From Candidatus Omnitrophota bacterium (GTDB lineage: Bacteria; Omnitrophota; Gorgyraeia; Duberdicusellales; 4484-171): a stretch of 64,000 nt of DNA. The position numbers were made by a program, and so were the translations under genes. The notes beneath the pieces were generated by a model. It worked only from the letters and a program-made list of their open reading frames with translations. It was not told where the DNA came from and did no database searches. The stretch covers positions 32,001 through 96,000 of the forward strand of contig JAIPGM010000003.1 in NCBI GenBank assembly GCA_021735655.1. Reading direction: 5' to 3'. Every line of letters begins with the position of its first letter. The first letter of the stretch is position 1. Of the stretch, positions 41,567-58,913 are shown piece after piece.

Positions 41567-42436
41567 ATGAAAATAGCTTTAATTTACAATAAGGATAATA
41601 ATTCTACTACTGGTATCTATATCGAGAAGGTATTTCAGGAAAATAGAATCAACTATAGTCATTTCTGGACCAAAGATGCGGATAATATTCCAAAACAGTT
41701 TGATCTTTACTTGCGAATCGATCACGGCGATTACAAATATGATCTTCCTGAGGATCTCCGTCCGGCCGTATTTTATGTTATCGATACCCATTTAAAAAAG
41801 CCTTATAAAAAAATCCGGCGACAAGCAAGACATTACGATGTAGTGTTTTGTTCAGAAAAAACTGGTTTGTTGTCTTTGCGTCGGCAGGTGAGGAATGTTG
41901 ATTTTCAGCGGCTTCCGCTCTCTTGTGATCCCCAGATTCATAAAAAATTAAACTTACCTAAAAAATATGATATCGGCTTTGTTGGTTCCCAAGCCCGTAA
42001 GTTTCCTCGCGGACGCCTGATAGATGTTTTGAGAGAGAAGTACCCGAATAGTTATATCAAGGGGGCAAAGTTTAAACAGATGAGTGAGATCTATAGCTCT
42101 TCTAAAATTGGCTTTAACTATGCTATTGCTAACGGTGTTAATATGCGTAATTTTGAGATAATGTCTTGTGGTTGTTTTTTGTTGACGAATCGGATAAAAG
42201 ATAACGGCTTTTACGAACTATTTGAAGAAGGAAAGCACCTTGTTACCTATAGCAATGAAAAAGAACTTTTGCGATTAATTGAGTATTATTTACATAATGA
42301 TAGCGAGCGAGAGCGTATTGCTCAGGCCGGGTTTGAGCTGGTGACTGAAAGACACACTTATTATCATCGGGTTCAAACCTTGTTTAATTATCTTGCTTTT
42401 AAATGGGGCGGAAAATTTAATCAGTTGAGGATATAG
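41567..42436 (+). CDS. CgeB-like glycosyltransferase domain protein (Glyco_trans_1_2-like)
   Basis: C-terminal FNYAIANGVNMRNFEIMSCGCFLLTNRIKD...HLVTYSNEKELLRLIEYYLHNDSERERIAQAGFELV matches the CgeB-family C-terminal domain. Confidence 0.5.
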   Translation: MKIALIYNKDNNSTTGIYIEKVFQENRINYSHFWTKDADNIPKQFDLYLRIDHGDYKYDLPEDLRPAVFYVIDTHLKKPYKKIRRQARHYDVVFCSEKTGLLSLRRQVRNVDFQRLPLSCDPQIHKKLNLPKKYDIGFVGSQARKFPRGRLIDVLREKYPNSYIKGAKFKQMSEIYSSSKIGFNYAIANGVNMRNFEIMSCGCFLLTNRIKDNGFYELFEEGKHLVTYSNEKELLRLIEYYLHNDSERERIAQAGFELVTERHTYYHRVQTLFNYLAFKWGGKFNQLRI

Positions 42437-42456
42437 GACATATATGAGTAAATGTG

Positions 42457-42485
42457 TTGCCAATACATTATAAATTGGTTAATAT
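42457..42485 (+). promoter_or_regulatory. Candidate sigma70-type promoter for the downstream cupin-aminotransferase-GT2-rSAM-ArnT-like operon
   Basis: -35 TTGCCA at 42457-42462, a 17-nt spacer, then -10 TAATAT at 42480-42485. It lies in the only sizeable intergenic region of this part of the locus. Confidence 0.4.
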
Positions 42486-42495
42486 AAGGAATTTA

Positions 42496-42590
42496 ATCCC
42501 TCGCAGAAATACCCGGGCTTTAGCCCGAGGGATGAATGCTCTTTTAGGATTTCTGCTCGGGAGGAAGCCCCCGGCCTTTTAGTCCGGGGA
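42496..42590 (+). promoter_or_regulatory. GC-rich structured 5' leader with mutually exclusive helices (candidate attenuator or riboswitch-like element)
   Basis: Helix 1: ATCCCTCG (42496-42503) pairs with CGAGGGAT (42526-42533), enclosing an inner GGGC-TTTA-GCCC hairpin. Helix 2: CCCCGG (42569-42574) pairs with CCGGGG (42584-42589). Alternative pairing: GCAGAAAT (42503-42510) is the exact reverse complement of ATTTCTGC (42549-42556) and extends imperfectly to CCCTCG/TCGGGAGG. This alternative competes with helix 1 or forms a pseudoknot. The element sits between the candidate promoter and the RBS/ATG at 42619. Confidence 0.4.
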
Positions 42591-42618
42591 GTCTTCACAA
42601 ATAAAAGAGAGGTAATTT

Positions 42619-43071
42619 ATGAAAGAACGCATAGAACATAAAGGTGAACTTTTAGGCCTTATTATAAGAGGAGACTATAATCCTTCTCAGACTGAGTTTT
42701 TTACACCTAATGAATTTAAGCAACAGGTTGGATATATATTTTACGATACCGGTCAGGAGGTGGCAGCTCATATTCATCATAATATGCCGCGTAGCCTTGA
42801 GGGTACTTCTGAAGTTTTAATTCTTAAAACCGGCCATGCCCGGATTGATTTTTATTCTCAAGATAAACAATATTTAGAAAGCCGGGAGATATTTCCCGGT
42901 GATATTATTATTTTAGTTTTTGGTGGGCATGGTATTCATTTTTATGAACCAAGTTTACTTCTGGAAATAAAACAAGGTCCTTATATCGGAGTTCAGGAAA
43001 AGGAAAGGTTTCCCTCGGCTTACCCAGAGCAAGAAAAGCTAAAGAAGGATGGTGAACCATTATCCCCGTAA
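42619..43071 (+). CDS. Cupin-fold protein (possible NDP-sugar ketoisomerase, FdtA/QdtA-like)
   Basis: 150 aa with a VAAHIHHNMP...E and ...VFGGHGIHF two-motif cupin signature. It lies immediately upstream of a DegT aminotransferase, the arrangement seen for 3,4-ketoisomerase/transaminase pairs. Confidence 0.4.
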   Translation: MKERIEHKGELLGLIIRGDYNPSQTEFFTPNEFKQQVGYIFYDTGQEVAAHIHHNMPRSLEGTSEVLILKTGHARIDFYSQDKQYLESREIFPGDIIILVFGGHGIHFYEPSLLLEIKQGPYIGVQEKERFPSAYPEQEKLKKDGEPLSP

Positions 43072-43079
43072 ATGAACCA

Positions 43080-44222
43080 TTGCTGCCGGGCAATGAATTA
43101 AAGTACGTTTCCGAGTGTCTTAAGACTAATTGGATTTCTTCTTCTGGCAGTTTTCTTGAGCGTTTCGAATCCGAATGGGCAAAGTATTGCGGTCAAAAAT
43201 ATGGTATTGCTGTTTGTAACGGAACGGTTGCTTTAGAGTTAGCTGTAGATGCTTGCAATTTTCCTAAGGGAAGTGAAATAATTCTACCTAGTTTTACTAT
43301 TATTTCTTGCGTCCAGGCGGTTACTAAAGCTGGTTGTAAGCCAGTGCTTGTTGATTGTGATTCGGAAACTTACTGTATGCAAGTAAGCCGGATAGAAGCA
43401 AAAATTACTGACCGGACCGTGGCAATTATGCCGGTACATATGTACGGACATCCAGTTGAAATGAAGCCAATAATGGACATTGCTCAGAAACACGGTCTTG
43501 TTGTTATTGAAGATGTGGCTCAGACCCAGGGAGGTGAATATCGAGGAAAAAAATGCGGTAGTTTTGGTAAGCTTTCCTGTTTTTCATTCTATGCAAATAA
43601 AAATATAACTACTGGCGAAGGAGGTATGGTTTTAACCTCTGATACTGTAATTGCTCAACGTTTGCGTAAGCTCAAAAATCTTTGTTTTTTAAAATCACCA
43701 AGATTTTTGCATTACCGGCTAGGCTATAACTATCGAATGACTAATATCCAAGCTGCTTTAGGCTTAGCCCAATTAGAGAATATCGATAGGTTCATTGAAC
43801 GTAAAATTGACATGGCCAAAAAGTATTCGCAGGCCTTAGTAAATTTACCGCTTCAATTACCTATGGAGCATAAATGGGCCAAGAATGTTATTTGGATGTA
43901 TAATGTGCTCCTTAAGGAAGATAAACAAAGCCAGGAGTTTTTTGAAAAAGACTGGAAAAATATAAGTCCAGAAGAGTATTTTAGATGGCCGGCATACAAG
44001 CTAATGAAAGTTTTAGAGCAGGCTGGAGTACAAACTCGTCCCTTTTTTATTGGAATGCATGAGCAGCCTGTGTTTCATGAGCAGGGGCTGTTTAAGGGTG
44101 AGAGATACCCGGTTACTGAAAAAATTGCTCGTTCTGGTTTTTATCTTCCTAGTGGCCAAGCGATAACTGATTTTCAGATAGATGAAGTTTCGCGAGCTTT
44201 AAAGGAGATATTTAATGAATAA
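43080..44222 (+). CDS. DegT/DnrJ/EryC1 family PLP-dependent aminotransferase (ArnB-like)
   Basis: CNGTVALELAV, DVAQTQG, and SFYANKNITTGEGG with the PLP Lys. Apparent TTG start at 43080. Confidence 0.75.
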   Translation: MLPGNELKYVSECLKTNWISSSGSFLERFESEWAKYCGQKYGIAVCNGTVALELAVDACNFPKGSEIILPSFTIISCVQAVTKAGCKPVLVDCDSETYCMQVSRIEAKITDRTVAIMPVHMYGHPVEMKPIMDIAQKHGLVVIEDVAQTQGGEYRGKKCGSFGKLSCFSFYANKNITTGEGGMVLTSDTVIAQRLRKLKNLCFLKSPRFLHYRLGYNYRMTNIQAALGLAQLENIDRFIERKIDMAKKYSQALVNLPLQLPMEHKWAKNVIWMYNVLLKEDKQSQEFFEKDWKNISPEEYFRWPAYKLMKVLEQAGVQTRPFFIGMHEQPVFHEQGLFKGERYPVTEKIARSGFYLPSGQAITDFQIDEVSRALKEIFNE

Positions 44223-44967
44223 ACATTTATCACTTTCAGTAATTTTGCCTACTTACGATGAGGCTGAAAATATAAGACCTTTGATAGAAAGCATAGCTGA
44301 GGCCACTGAGCATCTTCAGGAAATAATAGTTGTTGATGATGATTCTCCTGATGGGACGGCTGATGTTGTTGAAGATATGATCGAAAGCGGAAAATACCCT
44401 TTTCTAAAACTGGAAAGAAGGCTTAAAAACCCTAGCTTAAGAAATAGTATTTGGAGAGGCATAGAGCTAGCTAGCGGAGATACTGTTGGCTGGATGGATT
44501 GCGATTTTTCCATGCCACCTAGATACTTTCCGGTACTTCTATCTTTAGTAAATGCAGATTATGATATAGCTTTAGGTTCTCGTTTTGTTTTAGGGGGTAC
44601 TTGGAGAGAAGAAACTTTGGAGGATTCAGATACGATTTTAGCGGCTTCAGGTAGCAGGCTGATGAATTTTTTTATTCAGATTTTTCTTGACCACAGAGTT
44701 AGGGATTATACCAGTGGTTTTGTAGTTGCCCGGCGCGATATTTTTAAACGGATTAAATTAAGGGGTGATTATGGTGAGTATTTCATTGATTTTATATATC
44801 GGGCCTTAAAGTTAAGGTATCGGGTGGTTGAAATTCCCTATGTTTGGGCTTCCAGAAGAAGGGGATATTCTAAAACAGGTAATAACCTTAAGGATTATTT
44901 TAAGCGAGGAAGAAAGTATATAGCTACAGTCTTGCGTTTGTTGCTTACGCGAAATTATGAATATTAA
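44215..44967 (+). CDS. GT2 polyprenyl-phosphate sugar transferase (ArnC/DPM1-like)
   Basis: LSVILPTYDEAENIRPLIESIAEATEHLQEIIVVDDDSPDGT. The short soluble GT2 form is typical of Und-P/Dol-P sugar synthases. Confidence 0.65.
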   Translation: MNKHLSLSVILPTYDEAENIRPLIESIAEATEHLQEIIVVDDDSPDGTADVVEDMIESGKYPFLKLERRLKNPSLRNSIWRGIELASGDTVGWMDCDFSMPPRYFPVLLSLVNADYDIALGSRFVLGGTWREETLEDSDTILAASGSRLMNFFIQIFLDHRVRDYTSGFVVARRDIFKRIKLRGDYGEYFIDFIYRALKLRYRVVEIPYVWASRRRGYSKTGNNLKDYFKRGRKYIATVLRLLLTRNYEY

Positions 44968-46396
44968 AAAAAATATGAAACCTAAAGTTTTATTAATTAG
45001 TCCTCCTTTTGAGCATGAAGAAGAGTCAGTAGGCAAAACTAAAAGCATTATAAAGGTGTTAAATATTGTGCCGCCTTTAGGGATTGCTTATATTGCTGCG
45101 GTTTTAGAAAGAATCGGGATAGAAGTAAAAATAGTCGATTGTGCTACCGGAATTTCTTTCGACAGTCTTTTTAATAGCATAAAAATAGAATCTCCGGATG
45201 TAGTTGGTCTCACAGTTACTACTCCGGCATTTCTCAAAGCCAAAAAGGTAGCAGCTTTTGTCCGAAAAAATCTTCCTCAAGCAAAGATTTTGATCGGAGG
45301 CGCTCAGGTAACAGCTTTACCTAAAGAGACCCTAGAGACCGGTCTTTTTGATATTGGAATAATCGGTGAGGGAGAGTTAATTATTGAGCAGTTATTTAAA
45401 AATTATAAAAATGAAGGATTTGAGAATTTAAAAGAAGTTCCTGGTATTATTTATAGAGATGATCAAGGCATTCATCAAAATGAAAAACAGGCTTTTGTTG
45501 AGGATTTAGATTCTTTACCACTCCCGGCAAGGCATCTTTTGCCACATCCTAAATTTTATCGTCCTACTCCAGCTTCTTGTCGTAAAGTCCCTTATGTTGT
45601 GATTATGACTTCTCGTGGTTGTCCTTCAAAATGTACTTTTTGTGATCGAAAAATATTCGGTGAACGCTGCCGGATGAGAAGTGTAGCTAATATTTTTGAA
45701 GAGATAGAAGAGGTAGTATCAAAATATGGAGTAAAAGAGATAAGGTTTTTTGATGATACTTTTACTTTGGATAAAAAAAGAGTTTATAAAATTTGCGATG
45801 AATTTGAAAAGCGAAAACTTAAGCTTGCTTGGACCTGTCTTACCAAAGCAGCCTGCGTGGATGGTCCGCTACTAAAGCGAATGAGGCAGGTTGGTTGTTG
45901 GCAAGTTTTATATGGTTTTGAATCTGGTGATGACCGAGTCCTCAAACTGCTTAAAAAAGGCAATACTGTAGAGTTGAACAAAAGAGCAGTTCGTTTGACT
46001 AAAGAAGCTGGCCTTGAAGTGAGAGGGGATTTTATCGTTGGAACCCCTGGTGAAACTTGGGAGAGTTTAGAGAGAACCGTGCGTTTTGCTATAGATATGG
46101 ATTTAGATTACGCCCATTTTAATAAATTCATACCTTTTCCGGGAACAGAATTGTACCAGAATCTTAGGCAGCAGGGATATTCTTTTGATTTTTCTAAGAG
46201 TACTATATTAGACCACACTCAAATTCATTATGTTAATGAAGGTATGACTGCGGAGGGGTTTTCTCGATTTTTAGATAAAGCTAATAAAAGGTTTTACTTA
46301 AGATGGAAATATATATTAAAAAGACTATTTTCTATCCGAACTTTTCACCAGTTAAAAGGCCAAATAAACGGATTTTTTGCTATTTTTGAGATTTAA
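44957..46396 (+). CDS. B12-binding-domain radical SAM enzyme (class B rSAM, methyltransferase-like)
   Basis: N-terminal cobalamin-binding-like Rossmann domain (KVLLISPP...LGIAYIAAVLERIGIEVKIVDCATG), then CPSKCTFCDRK (CxxxCxxC) and a rSAM core. Confidence 0.75.
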   Translation: MNIKKNMKPKVLLISPPFEHEEESVGKTKSIIKVLNIVPPLGIAYIAAVLERIGIEVKIVDCATGISFDSLFNSIKIESPDVVGLTVTTPAFLKAKKVAAFVRKNLPQAKILIGGAQVTALPKETLETGLFDIGIIGEGELIIEQLFKNYKNEGFENLKEVPGIIYRDDQGIHQNEKQAFVEDLDSLPLPARHLLPHPKFYRPTPASCRKVPYVVIMTSRGCPSKCTFCDRKIFGERCRMRSVANIFEEIEEVVSKYGVKEIRFFDDTFTLDKKRVYKICDEFEKRKLKLAWTCLTKAACVDGPLLKRMRQVGCWQVLYGFESGDDRVLKLLKKGNTVELNKRAVRLTKEAGLEVRGDFIVGTPGETWESLERTVRFAIDMDLDYAHFNKFIPFPGTELYQNLRQQGYSFDFSKSTILDHTQIHYVNEGMTAEGFSRFLDKANKRFYLRWKYILKRLFSIRTFHQLKGQINGFFAIFEI

Positions 46397-56946: not shown

Positions 56947-58290
56947 ATGGATAGTTTATTCAATATCCCTAAAGTCTACACAGTTTTAGAACTTAATAAT
57001 ACTGTTCGTTCGGCTATTAAAGATAAGTTTCCTGAACAGGTTTGGGTTTGTGGTGAAATTCAAGGATTGCGTCCTGATCGCGGCAAAAGACACACTTACT
57101 TTGAATTAGTTCAAAAGGGTTCTGAAGTTGAAGGAATTGTAGCTAAAGTTAAGGTTGCTCTTTTTGCCGGGCGTAAACCAGTGATTGATCGGAGAATTCA
57201 AGAAACCAAAGGAGCTTTTGAACTCAAGAACGATATTGAGGTAAAGTTTTTATGTGAAGTTAGTCTACATGCTCCGACTGGTCAATATAGCATTGTAATT
57301 GTTGACATTGATACGGTTTATACTTTAGGTAAGGTTGCCCAGAATAGATTAAAAATAATTGAAGAGTTAAAGCAAAAGGGGGCTTTTGAGAAGAATAAGC
57401 TACACCAATTGCCGCTTTTGCCTTTGAAGGTCGGCTTGATCACTGCTTATGATTCAGCTGCTTATCATGATTTTACCAATGAATTAAGCTTAAGCGGCTT
57501 TGCTTTTAAGGTTTTAGCTATTAACTGTCATATGCAGGGCGCCTTAGTCGAGGCTGATTTGCTCAAAGGGTTAGATTTCTTTAACAAATTGAGCCCTAGT
57601 GAGTTAGACGTTGTTATTGTTACCCGAGGTGGTGGCTCAGTAGCTGATTTGAGCTATTTTGATAATAAAAAGATTGCTGAGGCCATAGCTGATTTAAATT
57701 TTCCGGTTATTTCGGCTATCGGGCATCAGATAAACACTACGATTACTGATATGGTTGCTCATACTTTTTGTAAAACTCCGACTAAGGCTGCTCAGGTTTT
57801 AGTTGAAAAGATGCAGGAGCTTTCACAAAAGCTGGATAATTTAGAAAAGGATATCTTAACTAAAGGAGAAAGTTTAGTTGAAAGCGCTAAGAGTCAGCTT
57901 CAAAACGTAGCCATTAGTATTGACTCGATTGTTTCGCGTTATTTTGTGGTTCATCGTGAAGATATTTTAGAAAAGATGCATTCGATAGCAGCAATTTTAA
58001 GAGTTAGTTTAGCTCAGCAAAATGAATTTTTAAAGAGTACTGTTTTGACTCTTAAGACAGCCTTGCCCAATGTTTTTAGAAGTCTTTTTGAGCAGTTGAG
58101 CCATTTAGAAGAGAAGGTGAGCATATTAGATCCGAAACAGGTCTTGCGGCGCGGTTATTCCTTAACTTATAAGAATGGGCAGATATTTAAGTCAATTAAA
58201 GATGTTGAGGTTGGTGATCGGGTTACTACAGTTCTTTATGATGGTAAAATAGATTCTGAAGTTAAGAAAAAGGAGAAAACAAATGAGTAA
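56947..58290 (+). CDS. xseA: Exodeoxyribonuclease VII large subunit
   Basis: N-terminal OB-fold LSELNNTVRSAIKDKFPEQVWVCGEIQG, a central catalytic region (VITRGGGS), and a C-terminal coiled coil. Confidence 0.85.
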   Translation: MDSLFNIPKVYTVLELNNTVRSAIKDKFPEQVWVCGEIQGLRPDRGKRHTYFELVQKGSEVEGIVAKVKVALFAGRKPVIDRRIQETKGAFELKNDIEVKFLCEVSLHAPTGQYSIVIVDIDTVYTLGKVAQNRLKIIEELKQKGAFEKNKLHQLPLLPLKVGLITAYDSAAYHDFTNELSLSGFAFKVLAINCHMQGALVEADLLKGLDFFNKLSPSELDVVIVTRGGGSVADLSYFDNKKIAEAIADLNFPVISAIGHQINTTITDMVAHTFCKTPTKAAQVLVEKMQELSQKLDNLEKDILTKGESLVESAKSQLQNVAISIDSIVSRYFVVHREDILEKMHSIAAILRVSLAQQNEFLKSTVLTLKTALPNVFRSLFEQLSHLEEKVSILDPKQVLRRGYSLTYKNGQIFKSIKDVEVGDRVTTVLYDGKIDSEVKKKEKTNE

Positions 58291-58495
58291 AAAACCCACC
58301 AAGTATCGCGAAGCCATAGTTGAGCTACAGGCTATCCTTAATGGTCTTGAATCTGAGCAGATCGATGTCGATGAAGTTTCACAAAAGGTAAAGCGAGCAG
58401 TTGAGCTGATTAAGCTATGCCGGGAAAGAATTGAAAGTACTGAATTAGAGGTTAGAAAGATAGTAAAAGAGTTCGAAAAGGATCCGGCGAAGTAG
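58283..58495 (+). CDS. xseB: Exodeoxyribonuclease VII small subunit
   Basis: 70-aa helical protein (YREAIVELQAILNGLESEQIDVDEVSQKVKRAVELIKLCRERI) that overlaps xseA by 8 nt. Confidence 0.75.
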   Translation: MSKKPTKYREAIVELQAILNGLESEQIDVDEVSQKVKRAVELIKLCRERIESTELEVRKIVKEFEKDPAK

Positions 58496-58508
58496 ATATT
58501 TAATCTAC

Positions 58509-58537
58509 TTGACCTAATTTGAAGCTTTTGTTATAAT
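58509..58537 (+). promoter_or_regulatory. Strong sigma70-like promoter upstream of rpsO-pnp
   Basis: -35 TTGACC at 58509-58514, a 17-nt spacer, then a perfect -10 TATAAT at 58532-58537. A 110-nt leader follows before the rpsO ATG. Confidence 0.5.
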
Positions 58538-58649
58538 ACCTTCCTACGGTGGCTTCCCGCTTCCTTTCCCAATTTCAATTTTTTTGAAGTGAGGGTTGAG
58601 AAGGTAAGCAAAAGTAGTTAATTAGAGTAGTTAATTAAGGTGATTTATT

Positions 58650-58913
58650 ATGATTGAAAAGAGCAAAAAGAAGAAATTAATTGAGAAATTTAAGGTGCAT
58701 GTTGAGGATACTGGTTCAGCAACGGTCCAGATAGCTCTGCTAAGTGAGAGGATAAATTATCTTACCGATCACCTTAAAAAGCACAAGAAAGATTTTCATT
58801 CCCGCCGTGGCCTGTTAACTCTTGTTGGAAGACGTCGTCGCCTCTTGAGTTATCTCGCTATAAAAGAACCTCAAAGCTATGCTGAGGTCACGAAGGAGCT
58901 TAAACTTAAATAA
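58650..58913 (+). CDS. rpsO: 30S ribosomal protein S15
   Basis: [49 protein letters not shown]. Confidence 0.9.

Follow-up and report, generated by a model that had tools for sequence, protein, structure and literature searches.

A conserved structured element that recurs beside unrelated genes in uncultured Omnitrophota

ERIC and Correia/NEMIS-type repeats are noncoding elements of ~100 to 150 nucleotides (nt) that lie in transcribed spacers of unrelated operons, form stable RNA folds, and have known effects on the processing and stability of mRNA (PMC10969869). In this study, an element that shares their size, noncoding nature, location, and stable folding was analyzed in a 64,000-nt stretch of a Candidatus Omnitrophota genome (contig JAIPGM010000003.1, positions 32,001 to 96,000; referred to as the window), where it occupies positions 42489 to 42599 in the spacer between a glycosyltransferase gene and an Arn-like aminosugar module. 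The first-pass annotation had proposed a riboswitch or attenuator at this position. That proposal held insofar as the segment is a genuine conserved structured element of RNA-like character, but the element is not an operon-specific riboswitch dedicated to the module. The explanation we prefer, to which we would give about an even chance, is that it represents one copy of an interspersed structured repeat family found in Omnitrophota and in contigs labeled Saccharibacteria and Planctomycetia.

None of the described systems provides a complete match. ERIC and Correia/NEMIS repeats have terminal inverted repeats and short target-site duplications and are each confined to one lineage, whereas in the present element the ends are asymmetric, a three-way junction lies internally with a 3' hairpin apart from it, and the orientation is strongly biased; no sequence match was found in 5,426 Escherichia coli genomes. 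Rickettsia palindromic elements (RPEs) are also structured repeats of ~100 to 150 nt and are found in frame inside genes whose open reading frame (ORF) stays intact (PMC10969869), as is one copy of the element (locus L024). In-frame insertion is the rule for RPEs, whereas it was clear in only 1 of 23 copies here, and the host phylum differs; the element is likened to RPEs by behavior. With candidate structured RNA motifs and small self-cleaving ribozymes known from comparative genomics (twister, pistol, and hatchet types) the element shares multiple copies in unrelated intergenic contexts, a conserved core, covarying stems, optional insertions, and a distribution mostly in uncultured bacteria, but it differs in matching no Rfam 15 model even at an E value of ≤10 and in having one copy antisense within an ORF. 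Riboswitch leaders that respond to global signals, such as the c-di-GMP-I/GEMM type, are similar in occurring several times per genome, before diverse envelope and pilus genes, and in having a conserved junction. Unlike them, the element lacks an expression platform, many copies abut the preceding stop codon, some of these are then followed by a promoter of their own, and no Rfam model matches.

Conserved structure and covariation

A covariance model (R1) was built from the first 11 copies and aligned to the window copy over its full length (model positions 1 to 108) with a score of 109.7 bits and an E value of 8e-23, with filters on and off. In the window, the element begins at the conserved TTTAAT (42492 to 42497) and ends at CAC(A) (42596 to 42599). 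No second copy was found in the window, either by mismatch search or by cmsearch with filters off. The parts of the element are as follows.

42489 to 42599, + strand: whole conserved structured element (cmsearch with R1)
42497 to 42508, + strand: 5' strand of helix P1, consisting of TCCC, a TC internal loop, and GCAGAA; pairs with 42551 to 42562
42509 to 42533, + strand: P2 hairpin, ATACCCGGGC-TTTA-GCCCG(A)GGGAT, with the A bulged at 42528 (covariation and ensemble)
42534 to 42550, + strand: conserved junction GAATGC, then the variable middle, which takes insertions of 12 to 35 nt in L034 and L018 (alignments)
42551 to 42562, + strand: 3' strand of P1, consisting of TTCTGC, a TC internal loop, and GGGA (covariation and ensemble)
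42564 to 42596, + strand: P4 hairpin, GAAGCCCCCGG...CCGGGGAGTCTTC, including CCCCGG/CCGGGG (covariation and ensemble)

The consensus of the family reads (A)TTTAAT-CCC-TC-GCAGAA and then ATCCCCGGGC-TTTA-GCCCG(A)GGGAT in its 5' part, followed in the 3' part by GAATGC-variable-TT, TTCTGC-TC-GGGA, G, GGAGCC-variable hairpin-GGCTCC, and ACT. Its architecture is a three-way junction of the long-range helix P1, P2, and a variable arm, after which comes the 3' hairpin P4. In the window copy the outer pairs of P2 are weakened because position 42511 is A instead of the consensus C.

This fold is supported by covariation over the 23 copies recovered with R1. Standard pairs were present in 94.9% of cells, compared with 36 to 54% when the partners were slid, and double compensatory changes were observed at 10 pairs (35 cells) versus 4.5 pairs (10 cells) in shuffles, a level reached by 0 of 500 shuffles. 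P1 was paired in 98.7% of cells, with 2 pairs changed on both sides, and P2 (helix 2) in 93.9%, with double changes at 3 pairs; P4 (helices 3 and 4) had double changes at 5 pairs, and one P4 pair occurred 10 times as UA and 9 times as CG. Individual copies illustrate these changes: in P1, CCC/GGG is replaced by CCT/AGG in L023, while L022 has CCCGAG.../...TTCGGG and shows the TC/TC internal loop closed as GA/TC; in P2, CGGGC/GCCCG is replaced by TGGCC/GGCCA in L026. Insertions were confined to the helix tips: the middle arm is extended by 35 nt in L018 and by 12 nt in L034, and the P4 loop by 14 to 46 nt in L025 and L027. The unpaired junction bases TTTAAT, GAATG, and the 3' ACT were nearly invariant. 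Because both patterns used to collect the copies demanded exact matches to parts of the core, part of this conservation reflects ascertainment, and the set lacks divergent members. The base of P4 occurs in two subfamilies, GAAGCC/GCTTCAC and GGAGCC/GCTCCAC (noted at L011, L017, L027, L038, and the window, 42564 to 42596); both are common to different genomes, and both were present within one MAG (metagenome-assembled genome; L017 and L023).

In the ensemble of the window RNA, pair probabilities were 0.76 to 0.95 for P1, 0.84 to 0.98 for inner P2, and 0.75 to 0.96 for P4. The minimum free energy (MFE) of the + strand was -44.8 kcal/mol (z = -1.47), and 14 of 200 shuffles folded as well, so the sequence by itself does not prove a structure; the element stands above chance because it recurs elsewhere with covarying helices.

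The complementarities that the first-pass annotation had pointed out within the segment are all present. The small hairpin CGGGC/GCCCG is part of P2, the pairing of CCCCGG (42569 to 42574) with CCGGGG (42584 to 42589) is part of P4, and that of GCAGAAAT (42503 to 42510) with ATTTCTGC (42549 to 42556) corresponds to P1; the last two covary over the 23 copies. The pairing of ATCCCTCG (42496 to 42503) with CGAGGGAT (42526 to 42533), termed helix 1, is also possible, and GCAGAAAT had been taken as its 5' strand; in fact, GCAGAAAT adjoins the strand of helix 1 and shares one base with it. Covariation was detected for P1, P2, and P4 but not for helix 1, which had been offered as one of two exclusive folds of a switch: it showed 0 double changes, was not above shuffles, had a probability of ≤0.01 in the ensemble, and costs 5.4 kcal/mol. 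That helix 1 is pairable in 90.8% of cells across the family is only because both of its strands are conserved.

Copies, neighboring genes, and insertion-like features

The exact 21-mer CCGGGCTTTAGCCCGAGGGAT (42513 to 42533) was searched in one genome per GTDB species and gave 13 stretches from other genomes; the whole ~105-nt segment is present in 10 of them. Eight of these came from a total of five Omnitrophota genomes, of which four are MAGs and one is a single-cell genome, and the others were on one contig labeled Saccharibacteria and one labeled Planctomycetia; the phylum labels of these loci (L011 and L015) were taken from the MAG records. By the 21-mer alone, one MAG contained 3 copies, and another MAG and a single-cell genome contained 2 each, these copy numbers being lower bounds. 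A second, independent pattern, specifying only the two P1 strands and leaving P2 free, yielded 15 Joint Genome Institute metagenome loci. R1 recovered 23 distinct copies in total, at 60 to 130 bits and with lengths of ~101 to 154 nt. Two copies at different loci of the same MAG (L021 and L022) were 92% identical. The window copy was 86% identical to L017 and L038, while the surroundings could not be aligned and the relatives of the flanking proteins were at most ~71% identical.

The remaining 3 of the 13 stretches, from Terracidiphilus and Treponema, share only the small hairpin (L013:3500-3520, L014:4920-4940, and L019:150-170). The Treponema contigs hold several more GC-rich GGGCTAAAGCCC-type hairpins, which, judged by sequence, possibly form a separate REP-like family (REP, repetitive extragenic palindrome).

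Rfam 15 gave 0 matches on the window at the gathering threshold, and at an E value of ≤10 it gave only chance-level matches for the window copy and six other loci. No copy was found among IMG/VR viral contigs with three patterns or by blastn of plasmids, phages, and the E. coli genomes mentioned above, and a brief literature search found no description of the element. With the family absent from Rfam 15 and from that literature search, the best reading is that these ~105-nt structured repeats are uncatalogued.

The genes beside the copies, identified by simple ORF calls, were unrelated to each other. Neighboring pairs were a GT9 heptosyltransferase and a PfkB kinase, an MscS-like channel and a GT4 glycosyltransferase, an rSAM-SPASM protein and a PMT_2 protein (rSAM, radical S-adenosylmethionine), a TrmA-like (tRNA) methyltransferase and an enolase-superfamily protein, an acylphosphatase and a metallophosphoesterase, BamA and a small ORF, and an MshEN protein and a PilB-GspE ATPase. 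Further neighbors were PqqD-rSAM, proC, ArsR-UvrC, and, at L022, a truncated DDE transposase. The distance from the preceding stop codon was often 0 to 60 nt and that to the next start codon often 3 to 100 nt. In L017 and L026 the upstream stop is the TAA inside the conserved TTTAAT, and other copies lie directly at a stop codon, leaving no room for a promoter.

The element was also sought at relatives of the window module. The first gene of this module encodes a 150-amino-acid (aa) protein that matches a protein of a Candidatus Omnitrophica MAG at 100% identity and whose nearest relatives, mostly from Omnitrophota, are 63 to 71% identical, and the series of genes for the 150-aa protein, DegT, GT2, and B12-rSAM is kept in these relatives in different surroundings. 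Their 5' regions (L003, L004, and L006 to L010) consisted of a short AT-rich leader with a promoter near the start, or the first gene overlapped the preceding one. No GC-rich structured segment was found upstream of these homologous modules by leader inspection, and R1 found nothing there, which argues against a module-specific riboswitch.

A promoter followed by a locus-specific riboswitch or attenuator, with two exclusive folds controlling the Arn-like module, is largely refuted by these comparative data, and we regard it as very improbable. Correctly spaced promoter hexamers, the position of the element 19 nt upstream of the first module gene, and the 8-bp pairing of ATCCCTCG with CGAGGGAT across most of the family speak for such a switch. 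Against it, the element is missing before homologous modules and present beside unrelated genes, with one copy antisense in an ORF, and helix 1 neither covaries nor forms appreciably. Nor was an expression platform found: P4 is followed by ACAAAUAAAAG without a U tract or terminator, and the Shine-Dalgarno sequence (42607 to 42612) lies outside every helix and is not sequestered.

Several copies show signs of insertion. In L024, the element (1341 to 1445, - strand) lies antisense and in frame within a 427-aa ArnT-family (PMT_2) ORF (754 to 2037, + strand). This ORF has a unique 29-residue insertion exactly at the element, which is missing in the 8 closest homologues (59 to 67% identity, 395 to 402 aa). 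In L028 (1795 to 2025, - strand), a 19-nt exact direct repeat, TTGGCCAACTTCTTATTGA, brackets the element plus 30 nt and is part of a diverged ~45-nt duplication of the start of the downstream PilB-like gene. The ORF upstream of this copy was considered as a recent duplicate of the downstream ATPase gene, but, being only 37% identical, it is classed as a paralogue, and the 19-nt DNA repeat holds regardless. In L031 (1490 to 1657, + strand), a 14-nt direct repeat, TATGATACTATCTT, flanks the element plus extra bases. The longest direct repeat in shuffled flanks of these two loci was 9 nt. The copy in L022 was considered as an insertion into the transposase gene, and this was rejected as no upstream N-terminal frame was found.

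The repeat reading rests on the dispersal among unrelated genes, the several copies per genome, and the absence from homologous operons, together with the in-frame insertion in L024 and the flanking direct duplications in L028 and L031. An assembly break had already suggested a repeat: in the Logan assembly of the source run (SRR12088349), a 90-kb contig ends and a 20-kb contig starts at 42541, inside the core of the element, which would fit either a break caused by a repeat or a heterogeneous population at that point.

Other observations weigh against the repeat reading. The copies examined lacked terminal inverted repeats as well as a regular target-site duplication, and no transposase, reverse transcriptase, or HUH gene was consistently near them. 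In-frame copies are rare, with 1 clear case in 23; a census by way of the antisense peptide gave 0 matches with phmmer against 1.84 billion representatives, and, as a 35-aa profile was too short, a longer profile was used, which gave 3 matches at an E value of ≤1 among 5.8 billion proteins, one of them strong (E = 2.8e-11). About half of the neighboring genes have envelope, glycan, or pilus functions, which could reflect a regulon, and at least 15 of the 23 copies are co-oriented with adjacent genes, with 1 clear antisense copy and 2 to 3 ambiguous ones. The pattern of conservation, with an invariant unpaired junction, covarying stems, and expanding arms, is the signature of a functional RNA and not of decaying selfish DNA. 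Finally, RNAalifold favors the gene-sense strand (-44.9 kcal/mol, versus -38.0 kcal/mol for the opposite strand).

The orientation, the conservation pattern, the strand preference, and the envelope-related neighbors support the alternative that the family is an uncatalogued functional cis-acting RNA, which could be a small self-cleaving ribozyme, an inter-cistron processing signal, or an aptamer that binds a global signal or protein and acts over many envelope-related genes, in which case the window copy would regulate or process the mRNA of the aminosugar module. Also in its favor, ~10 copies have a start codon no more than 65 nt downstream, glycan, pilus, or outer membrane functions are common among the downstream genes, arm lengths vary by expansions at the helix tips while the junction nucleotides are kept, and the element is conserved in contigs labeled as three phyla. 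We consider this alternative, the strongest of the rivals, possible though somewhat unlikely. It does not account for the lack of an expression platform, the Shine-Dalgarno sequence being unpaired or at a variable distance and no U tract following P4, nor for the copies that abut an upstream stop codon and are then followed by a separate promoter 3' of the element (L012 and L021). Moreover, one copy lies antisense inside an ORF, other neighbors are housekeeping or transposase genes, and no Rfam ribozyme or riboswitch model matches. The stem wobbles (21 GU and UG versus 16 AC and CA) give no clear sign of strand-specific selection and leave the strand assignment undecided, and single-sequence MFEs favor neither strand. 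The broader form of this idea, a new widespread class of functional RNA in Omnitrophota and neighboring uncultured phyla, acting as an inter-cistron ribozyme or global-signal aptamer with the mobility-like features being secondary, appears rather unlikely.

Relation to known classes of mobile and structured elements

The element was compared with known classes of repeat. Like a miniature inverted-repeat transposable element (MITE), it is small, noncoding, multicopy, and dispersed (23 copies). A MITE was rejected because there are no terminal inverted repeats, the 5' end TTTAATCCCTCG and the 3' end GGCTCCACT not being complementary and the inverted repeats being internal, and because no target-site duplication of fixed length was found; flanking direct repeats were significant in only 2 of 22 copies and differed in length (14 and 19/45 nt) and offset. 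No parent insertion sequence with the same ends was found in ~195 kb of flanks; the L022 copy adjoins the truncated DDE transposase ORF.

REP sequences and the bacterial interspersed mosaic elements (BIMEs) that they form are palindromes of 20 to 40 nt with a GTAG/CGTC head, often in inverted pairs. The present unit is ~105 nt, with no such head, no inverted pairs, and no E. coli match, and this class was discarded. An integron attC site was likewise rejected, as neither RYYYAAC nor GTTRRRY is present at the ends on either strand and each locus has a single copy. Inspection by eye also excluded a hammerhead core (no CUGAUGA, and a G at the would-be cleavage position), domain V of a group II intron (wrong bulge position and loop), and a tRNA-like minihelix (no T-loop). 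The window sequence TGCTCTTTTAGGA resembles boxA, but this stretch belongs to the variable part of the family.

The asymmetric ends and the lack of terminal inverted repeats and regular target-site duplications would suit a DNA-level hairpin element recognized in single-stranded form, such as an IS200/IS605-type or other HUH-mobilized derivative, with P2 and P4 as subterminal hairpins and TTTAAT as the target or cleavage site. The two hairpins have similar loops of the CTTTAG type, TTTAAT is kept at the 5' edge, features also compatible with a PATE (an IS200/IS605-derived element), and the wobble counts show no strand asymmetry. The orientation bias could also represent replication-strand-specific insertion, the window being co-directional with a monotonic GC skew. 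We judge this explanation improbable. The long-range helix P1 covaries, which the model does not predict; the P4 sequence differs greatly between copies of one genome, which is awkward for a single transposase; no tnpA or tnpB, nor any cognate Y1 transposase, was found in the ~195 kb of flanks; and the duplications at L028 and L031 do not fit peel-and-paste transposition.

The window locus and the probable role of the element

The spacer that contains the element spans 182 bp (42437 to 42618), and direct reading and the ORF list bear out the description of it as a gap in a locus of mostly abutting genes. Every gene-like ORF of ≥100 aa in the window is on the + strand, and the spacer is unusual because most of these ORFs abut. 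The features around the element are as follows.

41567 to 42436, + strand: upstream gene, glycosyltransferase (Glyco_trans_1_2; Pfam PF13524, E = 3.4e-29; ORF list)
42457 to 42485, + strand: promoter-like site, TTGCCA (42457 to 42462), a 17-nt spacer, and TAATAT (42480 to 42485) (consensus scan, 9/12 matches)
42607 to 42612, + strand: Shine-Dalgarno-like GAGAGG of the downstream gene, outside all helices in the MFE structure (sequence)
42619 to 43071, + strand: first gene of the downstream module, 150-aa protein without a Pfam match (ORF list)

The element starts 52 nt after the stop codon of the glycosyltransferase gene and ends 19 nt 5' of the first module gene. The gene for the 150-aa protein is followed by those for a DegT aminotransferase, a GT2, a B12-radical SAM protein, an ArnT-like PMT_2 protein, and another GT2. 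Among 235 homologues of the 150-aa protein, those in Omnitrophota are always followed by DegT, GT2, and B12-binding radical SAM genes (window 42619 to 46396); "cupin superfamily" is the label of one homologue in a single source. The arrangement suggests that 42619 to 46396 encodes a conserved route to an aminosugar that is modified, possibly by C-methylation, and borne on a lipid carrier.

The hexamers and 17-nt spacing of the sigma70-type promoter reported in the first-pass annotation are present in the AT-rich part of the spacer, outside the conserved element. However, they match the consensus at 9 of 12 positions, and such sites were not enriched in the window (8 found versus 5.8 ± 2.4 expected from shuffles). 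A promoter for the downstream module at 42457 to 42485 is thus plausible but unproven; if used, it would place the transcript start at ~42492, at the 5' edge of the element. The description of the segment as atypically GC rich applies to an intergenic region (0.58 over 60 nt) but not to the window as a whole, in which several coding stretches reach 0.57 to 0.62.

An intrinsic terminator of the upstream glycosyltransferase gene, the alternative left open by the first-pass annotation, would explain GC-rich hairpins after a stop codon, and P2 is indeed followed, 8 nt on, by CTCTTTT; the terminator scan listed sites at 42557 to 42574 (+ strand) and 42529 to 42512 (- strand). However, the U run does not adjoin the stem and is no conserved feature of the family, P4 leads into ACAAAUAAAAG instead, and the conserved 105-nt core far exceeds the needs of a terminator. 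In addition, L018 has a canonical terminator-like hairpin, AAGGAGAGCC...GGCTCTCCTT, followed by ATCTTTT, directly upstream of the element (1531 to 1580, + strand), so that this copy would itself need read-through or its own promoter. A terminator is accordingly hardly probable.

Under the repeat explanation, the element would spread duplicatively as a small nonautonomous element, much as ERIC, RPE, or Correia-type repeats do, and one copy would have come to lie in the spacer that separates the glycosyltransferase gene from the aminosugar module. This copy would be cotranscribed with its neighbors, either from the possible promoter at 42457 to 42485 or by read-through of the 64-kb co-directional cluster, and its folded RNA would form a stable structure just 5' of the ribosome-binding site; if the upstream hexamers are a promoter, the fold would be at the very 5' end of the module transcript. 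The local effect would most likely be passive or generic, as a structural punctuation mark for mRNA processing or decay of the flanking cistrons. Ligand sensing for the aminosugar pathway by the window copy is unlikely.

Elsewhere in the window, the cumulative GC skew climbs monotonically from 1 to 64000 with all plausible genes on the + strand, and ~55 kb consists of unbroken glycan, lipopolysaccharide, and radical-SAM genes with nearly no intergenic space. A scan of the window for tRNA and tmRNA genes gave none. A second spacer, at 58496 to 58649 between xseB (58283 to 58495) and rpsO (58650 to 58913), has a near-consensus promoter (TTGACC-17-TATAAT) and a leader of ~100 nt with many CTTCC repeats. 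From its sequence, this may be an S15 autoregulatory leader; it had no Rfam match at an E value of ≤1.

The analysis removes a false lead, since the Arn-like module has no riboswitch dedicated to it, and replaces that lead with a defined family with a consensus, four covarying helices, 23 instances, and a working covariance model, where Rfam 15 has none. In practical terms, such repeats break short-k assemblies, as in the Logan assembly here, and give rise to spurious ORF extensions and in-frame insertions, to which annotators should be alert. For the Omnitrophota, which are uncultured, the element would represent either a new small mobile repeat without the usual MITE hallmarks or a new class of functional RNA.

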